Of a DNA stretch of 64,000 bases, positions 3,823 through 54,476 are shown in pieces. How positions within the stretch are numbered: position 1 is the first letter of the stretch; each line of letters opens with the position of its first letter. A model generated the notes under the pieces. That model had not been told where the DNA came from. It worked only from the letters and a program-made list of their open reading frames with translations, and did not search any database. Source of the stretch: a virus; the IMG/VR virus record IMGVR_UViG_3300017742_004322, positions 10,939-74,938 of that record. One strand, written 5' to 3'. The position numbers and the translations under genes were made by a program.

Positions 3823-3872
3823 AACTCTTATTTTACGGCTTCTTGCCTTATTCAACACCGTGAATATACGAA
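3820..3872 (-). repeat. 53-nt promoter/leader repeat, copy 1 (copy 2 at 41824-41876)
   Basis: 48/53 identical by manual alignment. Confidence 0.9.
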
Positions 3873-5080: not shown

Positions 5081-5111
5081 AAATATACGAACAATTTTTG
5101 GAATAACCAAA
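5081..5111 (-). promoter_or_regulatory. Phage promoter
   Basis: TTTGG-N15-TTCG-TATATTT. Confidence 0.8.
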
Positions 5112-14014: not shown

Positions 14015-14049
14015 AACGTTATTTATTATATTTTTATATACGTATATTA

Positions 14050-14994
14050 TTATCCTTCAAAAGTCGCAGAACATAAATGTGTTTTGAAGTAAGAACACCA
14101 TTTACAATTATTATTAATTAGAGCAGGCATATTCTTCTCATTATACCCCTCAGATGTAAAACAATTATCTAAAAATTCATTTAGTGATTTTGTTGCTCTA
14201 TTAATTGAAGTTTTACCTGAGGGGGGTCTGAATTGTTGGATACGTTTTATTACAAAATCTTGTGATTCATATAACTTACGTTTTACAATAAAGAACTCAA
14301 TATCAATATCATCTATTGGGATATTATATTGTTGAGAAAAGAATTTTTTATATAGAACTAACTGATGTTGCTTTGATTTGTCTTTTTTAGCTTTATCATT
14401 CCACCCTCGTGTCGAGGTTTTTATATCGATTATAATGAATTTATTTGTATTTTCATTATACATCACGACATCAAGGAAGCCCATGTATTTAACGCGTGGT
14501 AAATGCGGATTTGGCGCCAATACAATTGGTATTTCACAACCTACTAACCACCAACCACGTTTAGAAAAATAATTTCTTCTATTTTTTCTAATATAATTTA
14601 TAATTTCAACACCGTCGGAATAGAATTCTCGAAGTGTTTGGGCGTCAGTAAAATGCTCTCCTTTATTTTGTTTATAAGCTTCTGCATAACAATCTCTTAA
14701 TCGGGTTTCAAAATCTGTTTCTAAATCTAACTCATCAGCTTTTACTGCACTTTGATTATACATAACATCAAGGTACATTTGCAATGTCTCATGTAATGCA
14801 GTCCCAAAAGTCATATGAATGCTTTGTTCCTTTATTTTATGACCATCTCTATATTGTAGAGCCCATTTTTTAGGACACTGTGTATACATTGATAGCTGGG
14901 AGTATGAGATATTTTTCTCATAAGCAAAATCAACCGGTTTAGGTGGATTATTTTTTATATTCCTAACTATTTGAGGAGCTTTTTTCTTAGCCAT
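14050..14994 (-). CDS. PD-(D/E)XK (RecB/Cas4-like) nuclease
   Basis: SYSQL..C, GTALH, E..GFLD, IIDIKT, QLxLY, CKWC...C. Confidence 0.9.
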   Translation of the reverse strand: MAKKKAPQIVRNIKNNPPKPVDFAYEKNISYSQLSMYTQCPKKWALQYRDGHKIKEQSIHMTFGTALHETLQMYLDVMYNQSAVKADELDLETDFETRLRDCYAEAYKQNKGEHFTDAQTLREFYSDGVEIINYIRKNRRNYFSKRGWWLVGCEIPIVLAPNPHLPRVKYMGFLDVVMYNENTNKFIIIDIKTSTRGWNDKAKKDKSKQHQLVLYKKFFSQQYNIPIDDIDIEFFIVKRKLYESQDFVIKRIQQFRPPSGKTSINRATKSLNEFLDNCFTSEGYNEKNMPALINNNCKWCSYFKTHLCSATFEG

Positions 14995-15840: not shown

Positions 15841-15871
15841 AAATATACGAAAGGATTCTCGGGTAACCAAA
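15841..15871 (-). promoter_or_regulatory. Phage promoter
   Basis: TTTGG-N15-TTCG-TATATTT. Confidence 0.8.
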
Positions 15872-23591: not shown

Positions 23592-23777
23592 CTATTTGTT
23601 TTGTTTATAATCTAAATAAAATCCAATCGCTACTAAAATATTCATCCCTACACTAGCGATTATCTCGTGTAAGTCTTGATATATATTTAAACTTAAATGA
23701 ACGTGTCCTATCATCCAAAAAGGTATAGCCATATTTTGACTAATCCAAATTATAAGAAATTTTAGGAATTTTTTCAT
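23592..23777 (-). CDS. Small membrane protein
   Basis: Two hydrophobic segments. Confidence 0.6.
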   Translation of the reverse strand: MKKFLKFLIIWISQNMAIPFWMIGHVHLSLNIYQDLHEIIASVGMNILVAIGFYLDYKQNK

Positions 23778-24694: not shown

Positions 24695-24934
24695 ATAGGT
24701 TATATTTTTTAACTGGAGGTGGTTTAATTTCTACCTCTTTATTACGTATAACATACAACTTACTTTCTAGAGGAGCAAGTCTAAACTCAGCTTTTTCACC
24801 AGTTTTAGCAAACCAAGCTTCTAAAGCATCTGTAATTGTTTTATGGACTGTTGAATCATCAACTAGAGACCACCTGTCACCAGGTGGAACTCTAATTGCG
24901 ATTAGCTCATTATGTTCTTTGATTTCTTTTTTCA

Positions 24935-24935
<1 letters not shown>
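24678..24935 (-). CDS. Hypothetical protein
   Basis: ORF track. Confidence 0.55.
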
Positions 24936-26843
<1,908 letters not shown>

Positions 26844-26847
<4 letters not shown>

Positions 26848-27125
26848 AATTTAATAATATTTTTAAGTTCGTGTGATTTTGCCTCAAAACGTTCTATAAA
26901 TTCTCTTAATGAATCATAACTTTTGGATTTAACACTATCACGAGCAATTGCTTCAAGACATGCTCCTAATCTACCATAATGGCCAATAGTGTTTTGATAT
27001 TCCTTACCTGACTCAGAAAATGAGGATTTTTGAGCAATGTAACAATGATCATCTAATTGAATATAATAAGGAGCTAATGCTGGATCCTTAATAAAACGTA
27101 AATTTGATTTGCTGGGTTTAGCCAT
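26844..27125 (-). CDS. Hypothetical protein
   Basis: ORF track. Confidence 0.6.
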
Positions 27126-27150
27126 AACTATTTTTTTATTTATTTAATGT

Positions 27151-27181
27151 AAATATACGAATAAAATTGCGCTAGGACACG
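27151..27181 (-). promoter_or_regulatory. Promoter for groES/groEL/clamp-loader operon (degenerate -33)
   Basis: CGTGT-N15-TTCG-TATATTT; overlaps the 3' arm of the Hsp20-flanking inverted repeat. Confidence 0.65.
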
Positions 27182-27690
27182 CTTATTTTATATAACTTTT
27201 ATTTGATTTTTATTGCTTTTGGTTTTGATTCTTCTGAAATTGGGATTAAAAGGTTTAATAACCCATTCTCCATTTCCGCACTTATTTTAGTTAAGTTGTA
27301 TTTTGGAGAGATTTTATATCCTAAATCAAATGATTTTTTTGATAAACCATGATAAATATAACCTGAAAGATCTATATCTTCTTTTGGTTTTTCATAACTA
27401 ATTTTAAGTAAATCTCCTTCAACACTAATATCAAGATCTTCTTTAGTAAGTCCTGTACAAGCGACTTCAAAGTGTAAACCTTCGTCGTTGTAATAAATGT
27501 TTAAAGGATGTGGTTGTTTTGAATTTAACGCCGGAGCGAATTGATCTTCAGAATTGAAGAAATTCCTAAATAGGATGTCGAACGGTGAACGTTCTAAGTG
27601 TTCTAATGTACTCATATCATTTATTTTGTGAGTGCCTAAGCTACTCGATTAATTAAAAATATAACAGCGCGCCCTAGCTACAATGTTATT
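27160..27690 (-). repeat. Imperfect inverted repeat flanking Hsp20 (arms 27160-27183 and 27666-27690)
   Basis: mRNA arms AAUAACAUUGUAGCUAGGGCGCGCU and AGCGUGUCCUAGCGCAAUUUUAUU pair over 23 bp including 3 G-U. Confidence 0.8.
27199..27615 (-). CDS. Small heat-shock protein Hsp20 (IbpA-like)
   Basis: PLNI, EVACTG...EDLDI, YIYHGLS, AEMENGLL, KAIKIK. Confidence 0.92.
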   Translation of the reverse strand: MSTLEHLERSPFDILFRNFFNSEDQFAPALNSKQPHPLNIYYNDEGLHFEVACTGLTKEDLDISVEGDLLKISYEKPKEDIDLSGYIYHGLSKKSFDLGYKISPKYNLTKISAEMENGLLNLLIPISEESKPKAIKIK

Positions 27691-27704
27691 TTAGTATACA
27701 TATA

Positions 27705-28445
27705 TTAAATATCTGCCTTCCGCACAACATAATAATAACTGCTCCAATTTTCACCTTCAAATTCAAATTTTACATACCCTTTAGTATTAACTTTCATAGT
27801 TGCTTTGGTAGCATCTTTATTATTATTAAGGATAGTTTTAAACATTGATGAATTGAAGGGTAATTCAGTTCCATAAGGAACATCTTTTAATGTTGTATTA
27901 GGTACTTGATAATCGATTTTATTTGTGTGATTAGAGACATCACCAAATGATAAAACTAACACATCTTGTAAATCTAAATCTTTATCAATATTAATTATTA
28001 CATTATCGCTTTCAAGTGCGTTATGGGCTTTAATAATAGCATTAATACTTTCTGAGTCTAATTCACTAATAATTTCATATTCACCTGATTCTGTAATTTC
28101 ACCTACACTTGAGATAAGTAATAAATCTGTTAGTGAAAAATTCAGAGTATAATTCATATCTGAGATGATGAGTTTAGTAAACACTTTTTGTGTTTTTTCT
28201 AACTCTAAAAATAATTCACCACTAGTAACCCCTAATAATTTATTTAATTTTGAGGTATCATATACCGCCATTTCGCCATTTTCTAACGGGAAATTTGCGT
28301 GATTAACGCGTCCAATCATATCCTTATTAGGTGATTGGAAATCAATATTTAATGCGTTATTTTCAATAGTCCATTTAACAGATTCTACTAATCCATTTAA
28401 ATGATATTTTCCAATAACTGATTGTAAGTCGTGTTTATTTATCAT
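27705..28445 (-). CDS. Sliding clamp (T4 gp45/PCNA-like)
   Basis: 246 aa, AVYDTSKL motif, C-terminal YYVV; between polymerase and clamp loader. Confidence 0.7.
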   Translation of the reverse strand: MINKHDLQSVIGKYHLNGLVESVKWTIENNALNIDFQSPNKDMIGRVNHANFPLENGEMAVYDTSKLNKLLGVTSGELFLELEKTQKVFTKLIISDMNYTLNFSLTDLLLISSVGEITESGEYEIISELDSESINAIIKAHNALESDNVIINIDKDLDLQDVLVLSFGDVSNHTNKIDYQVPNTTLKDVPYGTELPFNSSMFKTILNNNKDATKATMKVNTKGYVKFEFEGENWSSYYYVVRKADI

Positions 28446-28446
28446 A

Positions 28447-29373
28447 TTAAAAACTAAAAATTAGATTTCGGTAGGGGTTCATATTTAATTCCCATTCTAA
28501 ATCGTTATAAAACCCTTGTAATTTACTTTCTAAAATAGACTCAAATGCTCTATTTTTATCAGCATATTTATCCAGTAATGTAATAATTTTTTCTGGGAGA
28601 TCAAAATCTAAAAATGCAAGTGCATCAATTTTGTATGGATTTTCTTTAAAATAAATCCATTTAACTTTATCACCTTGAGTAATTTTAGAATGTTGTTTAT
28701 CTAACTTCCAAAATGTAAGTAAATCATTATATTTAATTGCTGCTTTTACAGGAGCAGGAGCACCTTGGTTGATTGAAGAAAACATTTCTCCGGGACGAGG
28801 AGATGATGCTAAATATTTATCTAATGTTTTTACACGAGTAGGGTTACCTAATATAGTAATATTAGTATCTATAAGGATTTTAGTCCTAAAGTTTTTTAGT
28901 AGGGTATCTATTTCGTTTTGGGGAGCTCCTTTAATAACTCTTTGCAACACATCTTTAAAAAAGTCTCCAAATATTTTAGGATAATTGGATTTCATAAATT
29001 CTAATCCTTTAATATCTAAATCATCTGTTGGTACACCTTCTTTTTTAGTAATCCATTGAGCATACCTACGGGTAGCTCTAAAATACCCAGCACGAATCAT
29101 ACACTCTGTTTTCATCTCAAGTCTATGTTTAGGGACATTAAATGCTTCTAATGCTAACGTATCGTAAGACTTAGTAATTAAATCCTGATATTTAAGAGCA
29201 ATATCCTCTAACTTTTCATCTCTTTCTTCCTCTGACATATTATCAAAGTTGGGATAGAGTTTTCTAAGCATAGGTTCTGCATTGTAATAATTAGAATCTG
29301 TATCTACATAAACGCAGTAATTTTCATCTTCTTTATCACAGATAAACCAAGGTGTACTTTCTAATTGCTTCAT
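28447..29373 (-). CDS. polB: Family B DNA polymerase, C-terminal subunit (motif C, thumb)
   Basis: YVDTDS motif C, RRYA, IKGLE. Confidence 0.9.
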   Translation of the reverse strand: MKQLESTPWFICDKEDENYCVYVDTDSNYYNAEPMLRKLYPNFDNMSEEERDEKLEDIALKYQDLITKSYDTLALEAFNVPKHRLEMKTECMIRAGYFRATRRYAQWITKKEGVPTDDLDIKGLEFMKSNYPKIFGDFFKDVLQRVIKGAPQNEIDTLLKNFRTKILIDTNITILGNPTRVKTLDKYLASSPRPGEMFSSINQGAPAPVKAAIKYNDLLTFWKLDKQHSKITQGDKVKWIYFKENPYKIDALAFLDFDLPEKIITLLDKYADKNRAFESILESKLQGFYNDLEWELNMNPYRNLIFSF

Positions 29374-41477: not shown

Positions 41478-41508
41478 AAATATACGAAATTACTATTGGG
41501 CATCCAAA
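41478..41508 (-). promoter_or_regulatory. Phage promoter
   Basis: TTTGG-N15-TTCG-TATATTT. Confidence 0.8.
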
Positions 41509-41623: not shown

Positions 41624-41654
41624 AAATATACGAAGACCCTTTCGGGTCTCCAAA
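41624..41654 (-). promoter_or_regulatory. Phage promoter with GAAA-tetraloop hairpin as spacer
   Basis: TTTGG-AGACCC GAAA GGGTC-TTCG-TATATTT. Confidence 0.85.
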
Positions 41655-41826: not shown

Positions 41827-41876
41827 AACCTTTATTTTGTGGCTTCTTGCCTTATTTAACACCGTGAATATACGAA
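41824..41876 (-). repeat. 53-nt promoter/leader repeat, copy 2
   Basis: 48/53 identical to 3820-3872. Confidence 0.9.
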
Positions 41877-44232: not shown

Positions 44233-44273
44233 ATAAAAACCATTAAGTATAACAAATTATATGCTTATACATA

Positions 44274-44813
44274 TTATTTATTTTTATAGAAAAACTCTAA
44301 AATTTCTTTTTCTAACACAGTATCCATAACAAAATTATCGCCATATTGAATACTTGTAAAAGTTCCATCATTTTCATTAACAATTTCAATAATATAATCT
44401 ATTTCATCATATATTAAACTATAACTTTCACTTTTTTTAACTAAATTAATGCTTTTGTTTTTATCTTCTTGAATCCCAGTAAATGTAATTTCTTTATTAC
44501 TTAAATCCGGAACATTAGTAAGCTTAGTTACACACTGGGCATAATTTGAGTGAAGAGTATCAATTAGATATGTATTATCTAATTCACTCATTAAATATAA
44601 TCTTTGTTTTGAGTCTAATCCACCAGCTTTGAAATCACCAGTATATTGCACCATTGGTAATGATAATAAAACTAATTTTAATTCCGGGGCAAGCTTATTA
44701 AAATTTACTACAGAAGTTATTTGATTACTATTATTAATATCTCTATTAAAAGGTAAAGATAGAAGATCATAAAAAGTCTTTGTGCTAAGATTATCTAATA
44801 TCTGAGGGCTCAT
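44274..44813 (-). CDS. Hypothetical protein in two-component operon
   Basis: ORF track; 1 nt from upstream stop. Confidence 0.6.
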   Translation of the reverse strand: MSPQILDNLSTKTFYDLLSLPFNRDINNSNQITSVVNFNKLAPELKLVLLSLPMVQYTGDFKAGGLDSKQRLYLMSELDNTYLIDTLHSNYAQCVTKLTNVPDLSNKEITFTGIQEDKNKSINLVKKSESYSLIYDEIDYIIEIVNENDGTFTSIQYGDNFVMDTVLEKEILEFFYKNK

Positions 44814-54445: not shown

Positions 54446-54476
54446 AAATATACGAAACGTTTTGGATAAATCCAAA
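54446..54476 (-). promoter_or_regulatory. Phage promoter for replication operon
   Basis: TTTGG-N15-TTCG-TATATTT. Confidence 0.8.

Follow-up and report, generated by a model that had tools for sequence, protein, structure and literature searches.

The hsp20 gene of this phage is enclosed by two complementary arms which, judged by comparison of sequences, very probably pair in the sense-strand RNA as a helix of ~20-24 bp with a bulge of 1-3 nt, closing a loop of ~480 nt that holds a leader hairpin and the whole hsp20 ORF. Complementarity of the arms is found in about a hundred distinct relatives, and this is almost certainly a matter of RNA pairing. The helix most likely decides where transcripts crossing hsp20 end.

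The gene (27199-27615, minus strand) encodes a protein of 138 aa that matches Pfam HSP20 (E = 2.7e-12), and is part of a minus-strand array with a 93-aa ORF (26844-27125), groES (26560-26847), and groEL (24935-26560), in which all flanking genes are co-directional. The G+C content of the window, that is, the whole 64-kb stretch of DNA analyzed, is ~30%. The source is a marine flavobacterial phage, kin of Flavobacterium phage immuto, and hundreds of contigs from marine flavobacterial phages conserve the element. Phage immuto itself, a cultured relative, has groES/EL in a different context and no hsp20, and was set aside as giving no usable comparison. The edges of the hsp20 module are sharp and the neighboring gene upstream varies among relatives. 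Two syntenic relatives (L198 and L202) have empty sites without the module; a deletion variant (L178) has lost the 5′ arm and most of hsp20 and retains the 3′ arm hairpin before TTCGTATATT; two others without hsp20 (L207 and L208) have at this junction a U-tract and a local hairpin whose loop measures 25 nt.

On the minus strand, positions 27690-27666 are complementary to 27183-27160, with ~480 bases between the arms. The 5′ arm is composed of an outer strand, AAUAACAUUG (27681-27690), and a core strand, GCUAGGGCGCGCU (27666-27678), which pair with the outer strand CAAUUUUAUU (27160-27169) and the core strand AGCGUGUCCUAGC (27171-27183) of the 3′ arm, respectively, in the layout AAUAACAUUG-UA-GCUAGGGCGCGCU opposite AGCGUGUCCUAGC-G-CAAUUUUAUU. 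The core helix is GC-rich and consists of 13 bp, including two G.U pairs, and the A/U-rich outer helix of nine pairs and one C.U mismatch, giving 22-23 bp in total with one bulge. When the 551 nt from 27700 to 27150 are folded, the long-range helix is present in both the MFE and the centroid structure (z = −5.4), and none of 100 shuffles folds equally well. Over 50 distinct relatives, the duplex energy is lower than with shuffled 3′ arms by 3.8-8.6 sd (mean 6.3). The 13-mer core is unique in the window when searched at 0-1 mismatch, and no comparable gene-flanking inverted repeat was found elsewhere in it, most candidates being AT-rich chance pairs. In the 75-kb record its only recurrences are chance hits within coding sequence. 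Two further copies of the arm motif, at 23700-23712 (within a 61-aa ORF) and at G000:C1:5130 (within a small ORF), were treated as chance. An Rfam search of 26000-29000 at a permissive threshold returned chance-level matches only (E ≥ 0.35, far under the gathering scores).

Both arms were found in every examined relative with a full hsp20 module (93-99 distinct flank pairs), and these relatives comprise 81 arm haplotypes at hsp20 identities of 58-99%. Their helices have a median length of 20 bp, with a core of 11-13 bp plus the outer helix, and a mean duplex energy at 37°C of −28.1 kcal/mol (99 relatives, range −21 to −33). The size of the bulge varies between 1 and 4 nt, and the place of the interruption is conserved. 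Cognate arm pairs reach −27.9 kcal/mol vs −20.3 kcal/mol for non-cognate ones. A cross-partner rank test, first tried on all 50 arm pairs, was uninformative because many pairs share one arm type, and was replaced by a test on 17 arm-type representatives. Here each 5′ arm, set against all 3′ arms (rows), has its cognate partner at ranks 0-2; by column the ranks are 0-6, with the cognate among the top two in 14 of the 17 cases; none of 100,000 permutations reaches the observed mean rank.

Pair counts were made on a subset of 33 sequences, since MAFFT alignment of all 54 puts the 3′ arms of two arm types out of register, and the remaining relatives were covered by alignment-free duplex tests. In the aligned subset 88.6% of cells are paired vs 35-47% in slid registers, and the covariation score is reached by none of 500 shuffles. 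For the core strands alone (33 aligned relatives) the paired fraction is 97.7%, with two-sided changes at three pairs. Across arm types, compensations in the core include CUAAGGGCGC/GCGCCCUUAG, CUUUAGGGAGC/GCUCCCUAAAG, CUUCAGGACA/UGUCCUGAAG, AAGGCGCGCU/AGCGCGCCUU, CUUGGGCGCG/CGUGUCCAAG, and CUAGAGCAC/GUGCUCUAG. Two-sided changes in the outer helix of relatives are AUUG/CAAU, AACAU/AUGUU, AAUGU/ACAUU, GAUAG/CUAUU, AAUCGC/GCGAUU, UAAUAUUGC/GCAAUAUUA, AACAC/GUGUU, and GAUG/CAUC.

We also noticed a pronounced strand bias: almost all mismatches between the arms are G.U on the sense strand. The sense duplex is stronger than the antisense one in 46 of 50 cases (Wilcoxon p = 2.5e-9) and, in a separate comparison, in 50 of 55. 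Counted as DNA-level transitions between the arms, 88 are sense-strand wobbles vs 8 antisense. Common descent and a C-to-T mutation bias on one strand could exaggerate this asymmetry, as could, for the second arm type, the TTG boxes that occur in its two arms. Single positions in the aligned subset take the states G-C, G.U, and A-U, and never A.C. The earlier note, made from the letters of the window, had proposed a long-range duplex enclosing hsp20 with one bulge and one C-U mismatch, and had read its G-U substitutions as a sign of selection on RNA. The duplex and its geometry are borne out at 22-23 bp, both arms are clearly conserved and covary in relatives, and the wobble counts agree with selection at the RNA level. 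It had also seen the 3′ arm doubling as the spacer of the groES/EL promoter, and the 3′ arm does overlap the upstream part of the next operon's promoter.

That promoter, for the 93-aa ORF, groES, and groEL, is marked by the −7-type box TTCGTATATT (27152-27161, minus strand), of which the last two bases of the 3′ arm outer strand form the start. The window contains nine exact coding-strand copies of TTCGTATATT, all upstream of genes and most in the layout TTGG-N15-TTCGTATATT, and the box is kept after the 3′ arm in nearly all relatives. The spacers of other promoters of the window, at 41876 and 41634, likewise hold GC hairpins (TTGG-hairpin-TTCGTATATT). By itself the 3′ arm folds into a terminator-like shape of A-tract, short GC stem, and U-tract, the last being supplied by its outer strand. 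In the arm type of the window, this local hairpin, GCGU-GUCCUA-GCGC (27169-27182, minus strand, taking in 27172-27182 of the core), has four to five GC pairs followed by AAUUUUAUU; it does not outperform shuffles or slid registers (mean z = −0.8), and relatives are compatible with it at a covariation not above controls. The second arm type has a 10-bp local hairpin with an energy of −11.7 kcal/mol (z = −2.1). The long-range helix takes up 62% of the nucleotides that the local hairpin pairs, so the two structures are mutually exclusive.

Directly 5′ of the 5′ arm lies a near-palindrome, ATAYGTATAA (block 1; 27694-27703, minus strand), which is the best-conserved non-coding block among 54 aligned relatives. 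It is kept whatever the upstream gene, of which there are at least five different ones, and similar motifs near 14045 and 44274 precede two other genes. We regard block 1 as a candidate non-canonical promoter box at the left edge of the hsp20 module. Between the 5′ arm and the leader hairpin is an AU-rich linker, GUUAUAUUUUUAAUUAAU (27648-27665, minus strand), holding a Bacteroidota-type −7-like box, TATATTTT (27656-27663), followed by TTAAT. A TAnnTTT box between core and hairpin is present in 83 of 101 distinct relatives, about half of which have TTG 16-18 nt upstream of it, and the layout TATATT-N4-7-TTAA of the linker matches the repeated promoters of the window. The linker is either a predicted second promoter (P2) or a cleavage site. 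Its box has neither the TTCG nor the TTGG element of the canonical phage promoters, and a canonical-promoter PWM scores neither of the two candidate hsp20 promoters, a result that is not decisive for a matrix built from eight sites and dominated by invariant bases. The T4-type late-promoter words TATAAATA and TATAATAAA gave no informative pattern.

The leader hairpin GAGUAGC-UUAG-GCACUC (27630-27646, minus strand) ends 14 nt ahead of the AUG and has a fold energy of −6.4 kcal/mol (z = −2.5). It covaries among relatives, with 96.6% of cells paired, two-sided changes at three of six pairs, and the loops UUAG, UUCG, and GAAA, and the second hairpin that had been noted before the start codon is real. 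The local AUAACA/UGUUAU fold once suggested as an alternative for the 5′ arm is present here, but it scores z = +0.8 against shuffles and its covariation is no better than in slid registers.

Four metatranscriptomes were examined as contigs, which cannot show true RNA ends. Contig 5′ stops fall at 27653 in two studies and at 27658, joined to adapter, in a third, and contig 3′ ends at 27159, 27168, and 27130. In three of the four runs, all contigs fall short of 27683; in run X5, a loose end from a relative runs 25 nt upstream of 27646 into 5′-arm-like sequence. Contig depth is higher over hsp20 than over both neighboring genes, a weak hint given that contig depth cannot rank genes. As a weak hint, since they come from contigs, these data would place the start of the abundant hsp20 RNA at ~27653-27658, downstream of the 5′ arm, and its end at ~27159-27168, and it is doubtful that the 5′ arm belongs to the 5′ UTR of the main hsp20 mRNA. 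By the same limitation of contigs, the RNA may be cleaved at 27653-27658 and not begin there.

As to function, we lean, at somewhat less than even confidence, toward the helix being a switch that is set by the start point of the transcript and acts on the end of the hsp20 unit. The 3′ arm would serve as the terminator or 3′-end hairpin of hsp20, placed directly before the next promoter box. A predicted inner promoter between the arms (the TAnnTTT box at 27656-27663, with a 5′ end near 27653) would yield the abundant short hsp20 mRNA, which would not contain the 5′ arm, so that the 3′ arm would fold locally and the RNA would end at ~27160. Transcripts started further upstream, by read-through from the preceding gene or at ATAYGTATAA, would carry the 5′ arm single-stranded, and this arm may capture the emerging 3′ arm, including stem, loop, and U-tract. 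Capture would block the local hairpin, and the long transcripts would run on into the 93-aa ORF, groES, and groEL. The outcome would be a strongly expressed, self-terminating hsp20 cassette in a co-directional array whose downstream genes are still transcribed. Put in full, this would be a polarity bypass, with an antiterminator strand located upstream of the promoter of the cassette and ~480 nt from its terminator, in which incoming transcripts ignore the terminator of the cassette and the cassette's own transcripts obey it, free of protein, dependent on the promoter of origin and mediated by a long-range helix across a translated ORF; in that complete form we propose it more guardedly still. 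One finding that speaks against it comes from the second arm type, where pairing by the 5′ arm engages the loop and 3′ strand of the local hairpin and not its 5′ strand, which is made first; antiterminators are less usually built in this way. Covariation in the long-range stem moreover stops exactly at the start of the U-rich tract, which equally fits a rival in which that stem is itself the terminator.

In this rival, block 1 would be the promoter, with the primary hsp20 transcript starting a few bases ahead of the 5′ arm, and the long-range stem and U-tract would terminate transcription with the whole gene in the loop; after release, the stem would join the 5′ and 3′ ends of the mRNA end to end and shield both from nucleases, and the ends at 27653-27658 would be later cleavages in the exposed AU-rich linker. 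We consider such a panhandle, or split terminator, unlikely on balance, and it does account for several features. Block 1 leads the non-coding sequence in conservation and travels with the module behind at least five upstream genes, and the spacing between it and the inner box shifts by several bases from one arm type to another, which speaks for an independent promoter and against a role as activator site. The supported pairing begins 4-10 nt after block 1 and stops at the U-rich tract, and with the contig 3′ ends at 27159-27168 this would set the helix flush with both transcript ends. The anatomy, an A-rich strand and GC stem followed by a GC stem and U-tract, is that of a terminator, one relative's RNA contig does enter 5′-arm-like sequence, and the genomes L207 and L208 have a hairpin and U-tract at the junction where hsp20 is missing. 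However, in two studies the longest contigs go no further than 27653, and in three of the four runs none extends to 27683, so that the abundant RNA seemingly does not include the 5′ arm and the model needs an additional processing event. There is also no known precedent for an intrinsic terminator whose 480-nt loop is translated, and block 1 matches the Bacteroidota −7 consensus poorly.

It is improbable that the helix is a processing stem, in which host RNase III would cut the bulged duplex of ~22 bp in long polycistronic transcripts and so separate the hsp20 segment. The length of the helix is steady at about two helical turns despite the turnover of its sequence, in keeping with the ~20 bp or more of RNase III stems, the flanking genes are all co-directional, and sharp RNA ends could be processing products. 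The 5′ contig end at 27653-27658, however, lies between core and ORF, and the 3′ contig ends at 27159-27168 lie within the 3′ strand of the outer helix or immediately after it, with the core between them and the ORF. Ends that do not face each other in the helix are a poor fit to a staggered double cut, and the conserved U-tract is given no role.

Still less probable is an inverted repeat that acts at the DNA level and has no RNA function, left either by an ancestral promoter-embedded terminator split by insertion of hsp20 or by cassette boundaries matched through recombination or gene conversion. The sharp boundaries of the module, the differing upstream genes, the empty sites, and the deletion variant would suit this origin, as would the repeated composite promoter/terminator motifs of the window, which resemble the PeSLs of T4-like phages (PMC4122927, PMC2839356), and complementarity by itself is strand-neutral. 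Against it, the arms are homologous in all lineages and differ by point changes that preserve pairing, so they do not come from independent insertions. Homogenization by gene conversion is made less likely by G.U positions that persist across lineages of 58-99% hsp20 identity, and the strong sense/antisense asymmetry and the tolerance of variable bulges of 1-4 nt also count against a DNA-level repeat. An inverted segment, as expected from recombination between inverted repeats, was found in none of the ~160 hsp20-query loci examined. Leaders of sHsp mRNAs often carry RNA thermometers, and hsp20 encodes an sHsp and has a conserved leader hairpin, but the thermosensor that the earlier note had in mind, in which heat would melt the structure and turn hsp20 translation on, is hardly credible, since the helix (~−28 kcal/mol on average, −21 to −33 among relatives) greatly exceeds known RNA thermometers in stability and lies too distant from the start codon, both that codon and the A-rich stretch ahead of it are left uncovered by the helix and the leader hairpin alike (AUG 27613-27615 and the preceding 14 nt are unpaired in the local fold and in the full-fold centroid), and leader hairpins of relatives have stable UUCG and GAAA loops.

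Several known systems share parts of this arrangement. In lambda sib retroregulation, duplex formation depends on where transcription started or stopped, and RNase III stems flank rRNAs and T7 early mRNAs, where long-range stems can enclose a whole functional RNA; at hsp20, the ends seen in RNA contigs are not opposite one another in the helix. In phage T4, the genes e, soc, 49, and I-TevI have a promoter inside the region encoding the 5′ strand of a helix, such that only longer transcripts form it (PMC3014915). The hsp20 element would resemble them in that formation of the helix depends on the transcript and gives a phage temporal logic without a protein switch. The T4 helix as described there is local and hides the ribosome-binding site (PMC3014915), whereas the partner strand in hsp20 is ~480 nt away, behind the ORF, and its 3′ arm overlaps a terminator-like element and the next promoter; the inner promoter is here a predicted one. 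The icaR mRNA of Staphylococcus aureus is similar in that sequences flanking one ORF pair within one mRNA (PMC3868564), its 3′ UTR pairing with the Shine-Dalgarno region, which blocks translation and creates an RNase III site. The 3′ arm of hsp20, in contrast, pairs 51-75 nt upstream of the AUG and leaves the start region free. In hok mRNA (reviewed in PMC9841398), pairing of the 5′ and 3′ ends closes the full-length message and competes with local folds, as in hsp20, but hok is a toxin mRNA under the control of 3′ trimming and an antisense RNA, neither of which is seen at hsp20, and the 5′ arm is possibly not at the 5′ end of the main hsp20 RNA.

The PeSLs of T4-like phages are direct repeats that form local hairpins, with a proposed role in DNA recombination (PMC2839356, PMC4122927). 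The window likewise repeats a stem-loop with an early-type promoter motif (TTGG-hairpin-TTCGTATATT; nine boxes, several with GC hairpins in the spacer), and the hsp20 module is bounded by such motifs and is present or absent in syntenic relatives, a likeness of motif layout. The hsp20 stem differs in being split across a gene and kept by RNA-type covariation.

Comparative support for long-range pairing across a whole bacterial or phage ORF is rare. With about a hundred natural variants at hand, the structure can be taken as given and its function becomes the question. Three signals, namely a promoter, a terminator-like hairpin, and the next promoter, meet at the element, a compact natural system in which to ask how RNA that folds over hundreds of nucleotides, across a translated region, can decide the fate of a transcript. 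If the polarity bypass is true, it would explain how strongly expressed, self-contained phage cassettes can sit in co-directional arrays without starving the downstream genes, and synthetic operons could be designed on this simple principle. Were the panhandle true, hsp20 would be a phage example of end-to-end mRNA closure. On either reading, the helix is an undescribed and widespread RNA element of uncultured marine phages akin to Flavobacterium phage immuto.

Genes in this region are all encoded on the minus strand. The hsp20 gene (27199-27615; Pfam HSP20, E = 2.7e-12) follows a 246-aa gene ending at 27705 and precedes a 93-aa ORF (26844-27125), groES (26560-26847), and groEL (24935-26560). 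It is enclosed by two arms: in the RNA sense, the 5′ arm AAUAACAUUG-UA-GCUAGGGCGCGCU (27690-27666) is opposite the 3′ arm AGCGUGUCCUAGC-G-CAAUUUUAUU (27183-27160), giving a 13-bp core helix with two G.U pairs included, then a small bulge and an outer helix of nine pairs and one C.U mismatch. The 551-nt fold of 27700-27150 (z = −5.4) has the long-range helix in its MFE structure and also in its centroid. The earlier note had described the sequence accurately. Window G+C is ~30%, and no second copy of the GC-rich core exists in the window at 0-1 mismatch; in the 75-kb record, similar words occur only within coding sequence. Rfam holds no family for the arm element.

Two scans of viral contigs with the hsp20 protein as query gave 372 and 387 related stretches, of which the best 80 each were read. 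They come from marine metagenomes, on contigs as long as 164 kb, and their hsp20 is 58-99% identical to that of the window; the nearest cultured phage by groEL, Flavobacterium phage immuto, is without this hsp20. Among these best 80 of 372 and of 387, both arms are found in every locus with sufficient flank. The helix has a median of 20 bp and a mean duplex energy of −28.1 kcal/mol across distinct relatives. All statistics omit contig IMGVR_UViG_3300002144_000634 (loci L068 and L135), in which a ~150-nt duplicate of the hsp20 N-terminal coding sequence, a true rearrangement or else an artefact of assembly, replaces the 5′ arm ahead of the leader hairpin.

The arms change in concert among relatives. 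Core pairs include CUAGGGCGCGC/GCGUGUCCUAG, CCUAAGGGCGC/GCGCCCUUAGG, CUUAGGGCACAAU/AUUGUGCCCUUAAG, CUUUAGGGAGC/GCUCCCUAAAG, CUUCAGGACA/UGUCCUGAAG, AAGGCGCGCU/AGCGCGCCUU, CUUGGGCGCG/CGUGUCCAAG, and CUAGAGCAC/GUGCUCUAG, and outer-helix variants include AUUG/CAAU, AACAU/AUGUU, AAUGU/ACAUU, GAUAG/CUAUU, AAUCGC/GCGAUU, UAAUAUUGC/GCAAUAUUA, AACAC/GUGUU, and GAUG/CAUC. Cognate arms pair at −27.9 kcal/mol vs −20.3 kcal/mol for non-cognate ones, and the cognate duplex averages 6.3 sd below shuffled 3′ arms. For 17 arm-type representatives the rank of the cognate partner is 0-2 within rows and 0-6 within columns (top two in 14/17), a mean rank reached by 0 of 100,000 permutations. With 33 sequences of the window's arm type aligned, 88.6% of cells are paired, against 35-47% with the partner slid by 1-3 columns, and 97.7% within the core helix. 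The earlier note had proposed arm conservation and covariation in related phages as a check; both are present, in a deduplicated set of 93-99 distinct flank pairs (81 distinct arm haplotypes) and with a covariation score that 0 of 500 shuffles of this alignment reach.

Complementarity by itself is also compatible with a DNA repeat. Of the sense and antisense duplexes, the sense form is the stabler in 46 of 50 cases in one set and 50 of 55 in the other. With the 5′ arm aligned at the DNA level to the reverse-complemented 3′ arm, transition differences give 88 sense G.U/U.G against 8 antisense; the counts are phylogenetically non-independent, and a strand-specific C-to-T bias would push their asymmetry in the same direction. 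Single positions take the states G-C, G.U, and A-U, with A.C absent. Together, sense stability, wobble asymmetry and the missing A.C state point to coding-strand RNA. As a further caveat, three wobbles of the second arm type lie within TTG words, possibly −33 promoter boxes in both arms. Bulges of 1-4 nt are tolerated, and none of the ~160 hsp20-query loci printed or aligned carries an inverted hsp20 segment. Judged from sequence, the arms very probably pair as a coding-strand RNA helix.

The gene preceding hsp20 is of at least five unrelated kinds among relatives. Whatever that gene is, the near-palindrome ATAYGTATAA (block 1, 27694-27703), both arms, the leader hairpin and hsp20 are kept together, so the hsp20 unit behaves as a module. 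The leader hairpin (GAGUAGC-UUAG-GCACUC, 27646-27630), the earlier note's second hairpin before the start codon, is conserved. In loci L041 and L042, compared with L040, one lineage's hsp20 N-terminal sequence is joined to arms of the other type; the module is thus mosaic, though both arms are inherited as a matched pair. For an empty-site comparison, relatives with the 93-aa ORF but without hsp20 were retrieved: L198, L202, L207, and L208 are syntenic, and L178 is a deletion. At the L198 junction the upstream stop codon leads directly into TTTGG-N15-TTCGTATATT, a canonical promoter only, with no arms; in L207 and L208 the junction carries a local hairpin (25-nt loop) and a U-tract. The ~480-nt deletion of L178 removes the 5′ arm but spares block 1, the final codons of hsp20 and the hairpin of the 3′ arm.

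A promoter-like motif, TTGG-N15-TTCGTATATT-yAC...TTAA, is repeated in the window and agrees with the Bacteroidota −33/−7 pattern. Its TTCGTATATT box has nine exact copies, each upstream of a gene and on the coding strand. Composite copies, likewise coding-strand and upstream of genes, are at 2466-2475, 3863-3872, 5082-5091, 15842-15851, 41479-41488, 41625-41634, 41867-41876, and 54447-54456. Several have a GC hairpin in the spacer (e.g., GGGGCGAAAGCCCC at 41876; those at 41876 and 41634 have GNRA loops), which marks them as putative composite terminator/promoter units. They look like PeSL-style units of a Bacteroidota-infecting phage, akin to the PeSLs of T4-like phages (PMC2839356, PMC4122927). 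A 20-nt inverted repeat (4804-4823/5441-5460; 90% complementary, moderately GC-rich), in two adjacent CDSs flanking the promoter at 5091, may be chance.

The 3′ arm ends inside the TTCGTATATT box at 27152-27161, which bears out an earlier suspicion that it overlaps the next promoter. Alone, it folds locally as AUAAAAU-AA-GCGU-GUCCUA-GCGC-A-AUUUUAU (~−7 kcal/mol), a GC stem with an A-tract before it and a U-tract after it; the second arm type has a 10-bp local hairpin including the stop codon (−11.7 kcal/mol, z = −2.1). Since the long-range helix draws on 62% of the nucleotides paired in these local hairpins, the two folds are mutually exclusive. Covariation support for the local 3′ hairpin is absent in the window's arm type. 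A local hairpin proposed around the 5′ arm finds no backing in covariation or fold statistics (flanks z = +0.2 to +2.0; shorter window with mononucleotide shuffles, mean z = −1.5). The conserved sense-strand helix thus shares sequence both with a terminator-like element and with the next promoter.

The AU-rich linker contains a TAnnTTT box, TATATTTT (27656-27663), followed by TTAAT, a layout as downstream of canonical boxes. Of 101 distinct relatives, 83 have such a box, roughly half of these with TTG 16-18 nt upstream. It is a possible inner promoter, a candidate that a small PWM of canonical promoters leaves unscored. We also noticed intergenic block-1-like near-palindromes at ~14030-14050 and 44265-44274 (minus strand; AUAUACGUAUAU; AUAUGUAUAA), 20-40 nt upstream of start codons, which hints at a second class of promoter or RNA motif outside the canonical one. 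At the hsp20 start, the 18 consecutive bases of AAUGAUAUGAGUACAUUA (27610-27627, minus strand) are invariant in 54 of 54 aligned relatives, synonymous sites included. Within them lies the mini-ORF AUG AUA UGA, two codons long, with a stop that overlaps the AUG of hsp20; the stretch may act as a start-region signal in a host group independent of Shine-Dalgarno pairing.

Four seawater metatranscriptomes, each from a different study, supplied RNA-derived contigs that were mapped to 24900-28500. Contig depth is 15-120 over hsp20 vs 0-2 over the upstream gene. The longest perfect contigs end at 27653 (two studies), an Illumina adapter occurs at 27658 in a relative's contig, and 3′ ends are at 27159, 27168, and 27130. 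In three of the four runs, no contig extends as far as 27683; a contig from one relative continues 25 nt upstream of 27646, into 5′-arm-like sequence. Because contigs cannot map ends, this is a weak hint, suggesting that abundant hsp20 RNA begins in the linker that separates the 5′ arm from the leader hairpin, and that it stops within the U-tract.

The 5′ arm would then lie upstream of the main hsp20 mRNA start and be carried by longer transcripts only. In these, the single-stranded 5′ arm would capture the nascent 3′ arm and block the local 3′ hairpin, so that they would read on into the 93-aa ORF, groES, and groEL, while transcripts initiated in the cassette would stop at ~27160. As a whole this origin-dependent mechanism is the favored reading but tentative, plausible rather than probable. 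A precedent for start-dependent helix logic is available from T4 e, soc, 49, and I-TevI, where a promoter inside the helix-coding region gives transcripts unable to form the helix (PMC3014915). An end-to-end panhandle or split terminator, with the transcript starting at block 1, is unlikely: it fits the strong block 1 conservation and a covarying stem that stops exactly at the U-tract, but requires extra cleavage for the 27653 ends. RNase III processing is improbable, for although the helix is about two helical turns long, the observed RNA ends are not opposite one another in it, which argues against a simple staggered cut. A purely DNA-level repeat fits the modular context but neither the strand asymmetry nor the persistent wobble positions, and is very improbable. 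The thermosensor favored by the earlier note is hardly credible, the helix being wrong for an RNA thermometer in position and stability.

Pairing of 5′ and 3′ regions inside one mRNA likewise occurs in icaR (PMC3868564) and in the hok fold-back (PMC9841398). However, the phage helix is not at the ribosome-binding site as in icaR-type pairing, no toxin or antisense RNA was seen as for hok, and, compared with the T4 helices, the logic is similar but the helix is not local. In its defining features the element therefore matches none of these systems. It appears to be a long-range cis-acting mRNA helix with unusually strong comparative support; L198, L202, L207, L208, and L178 provide useful natural "mutants" of the hsp20 module, and the function of the helix is directly testable.
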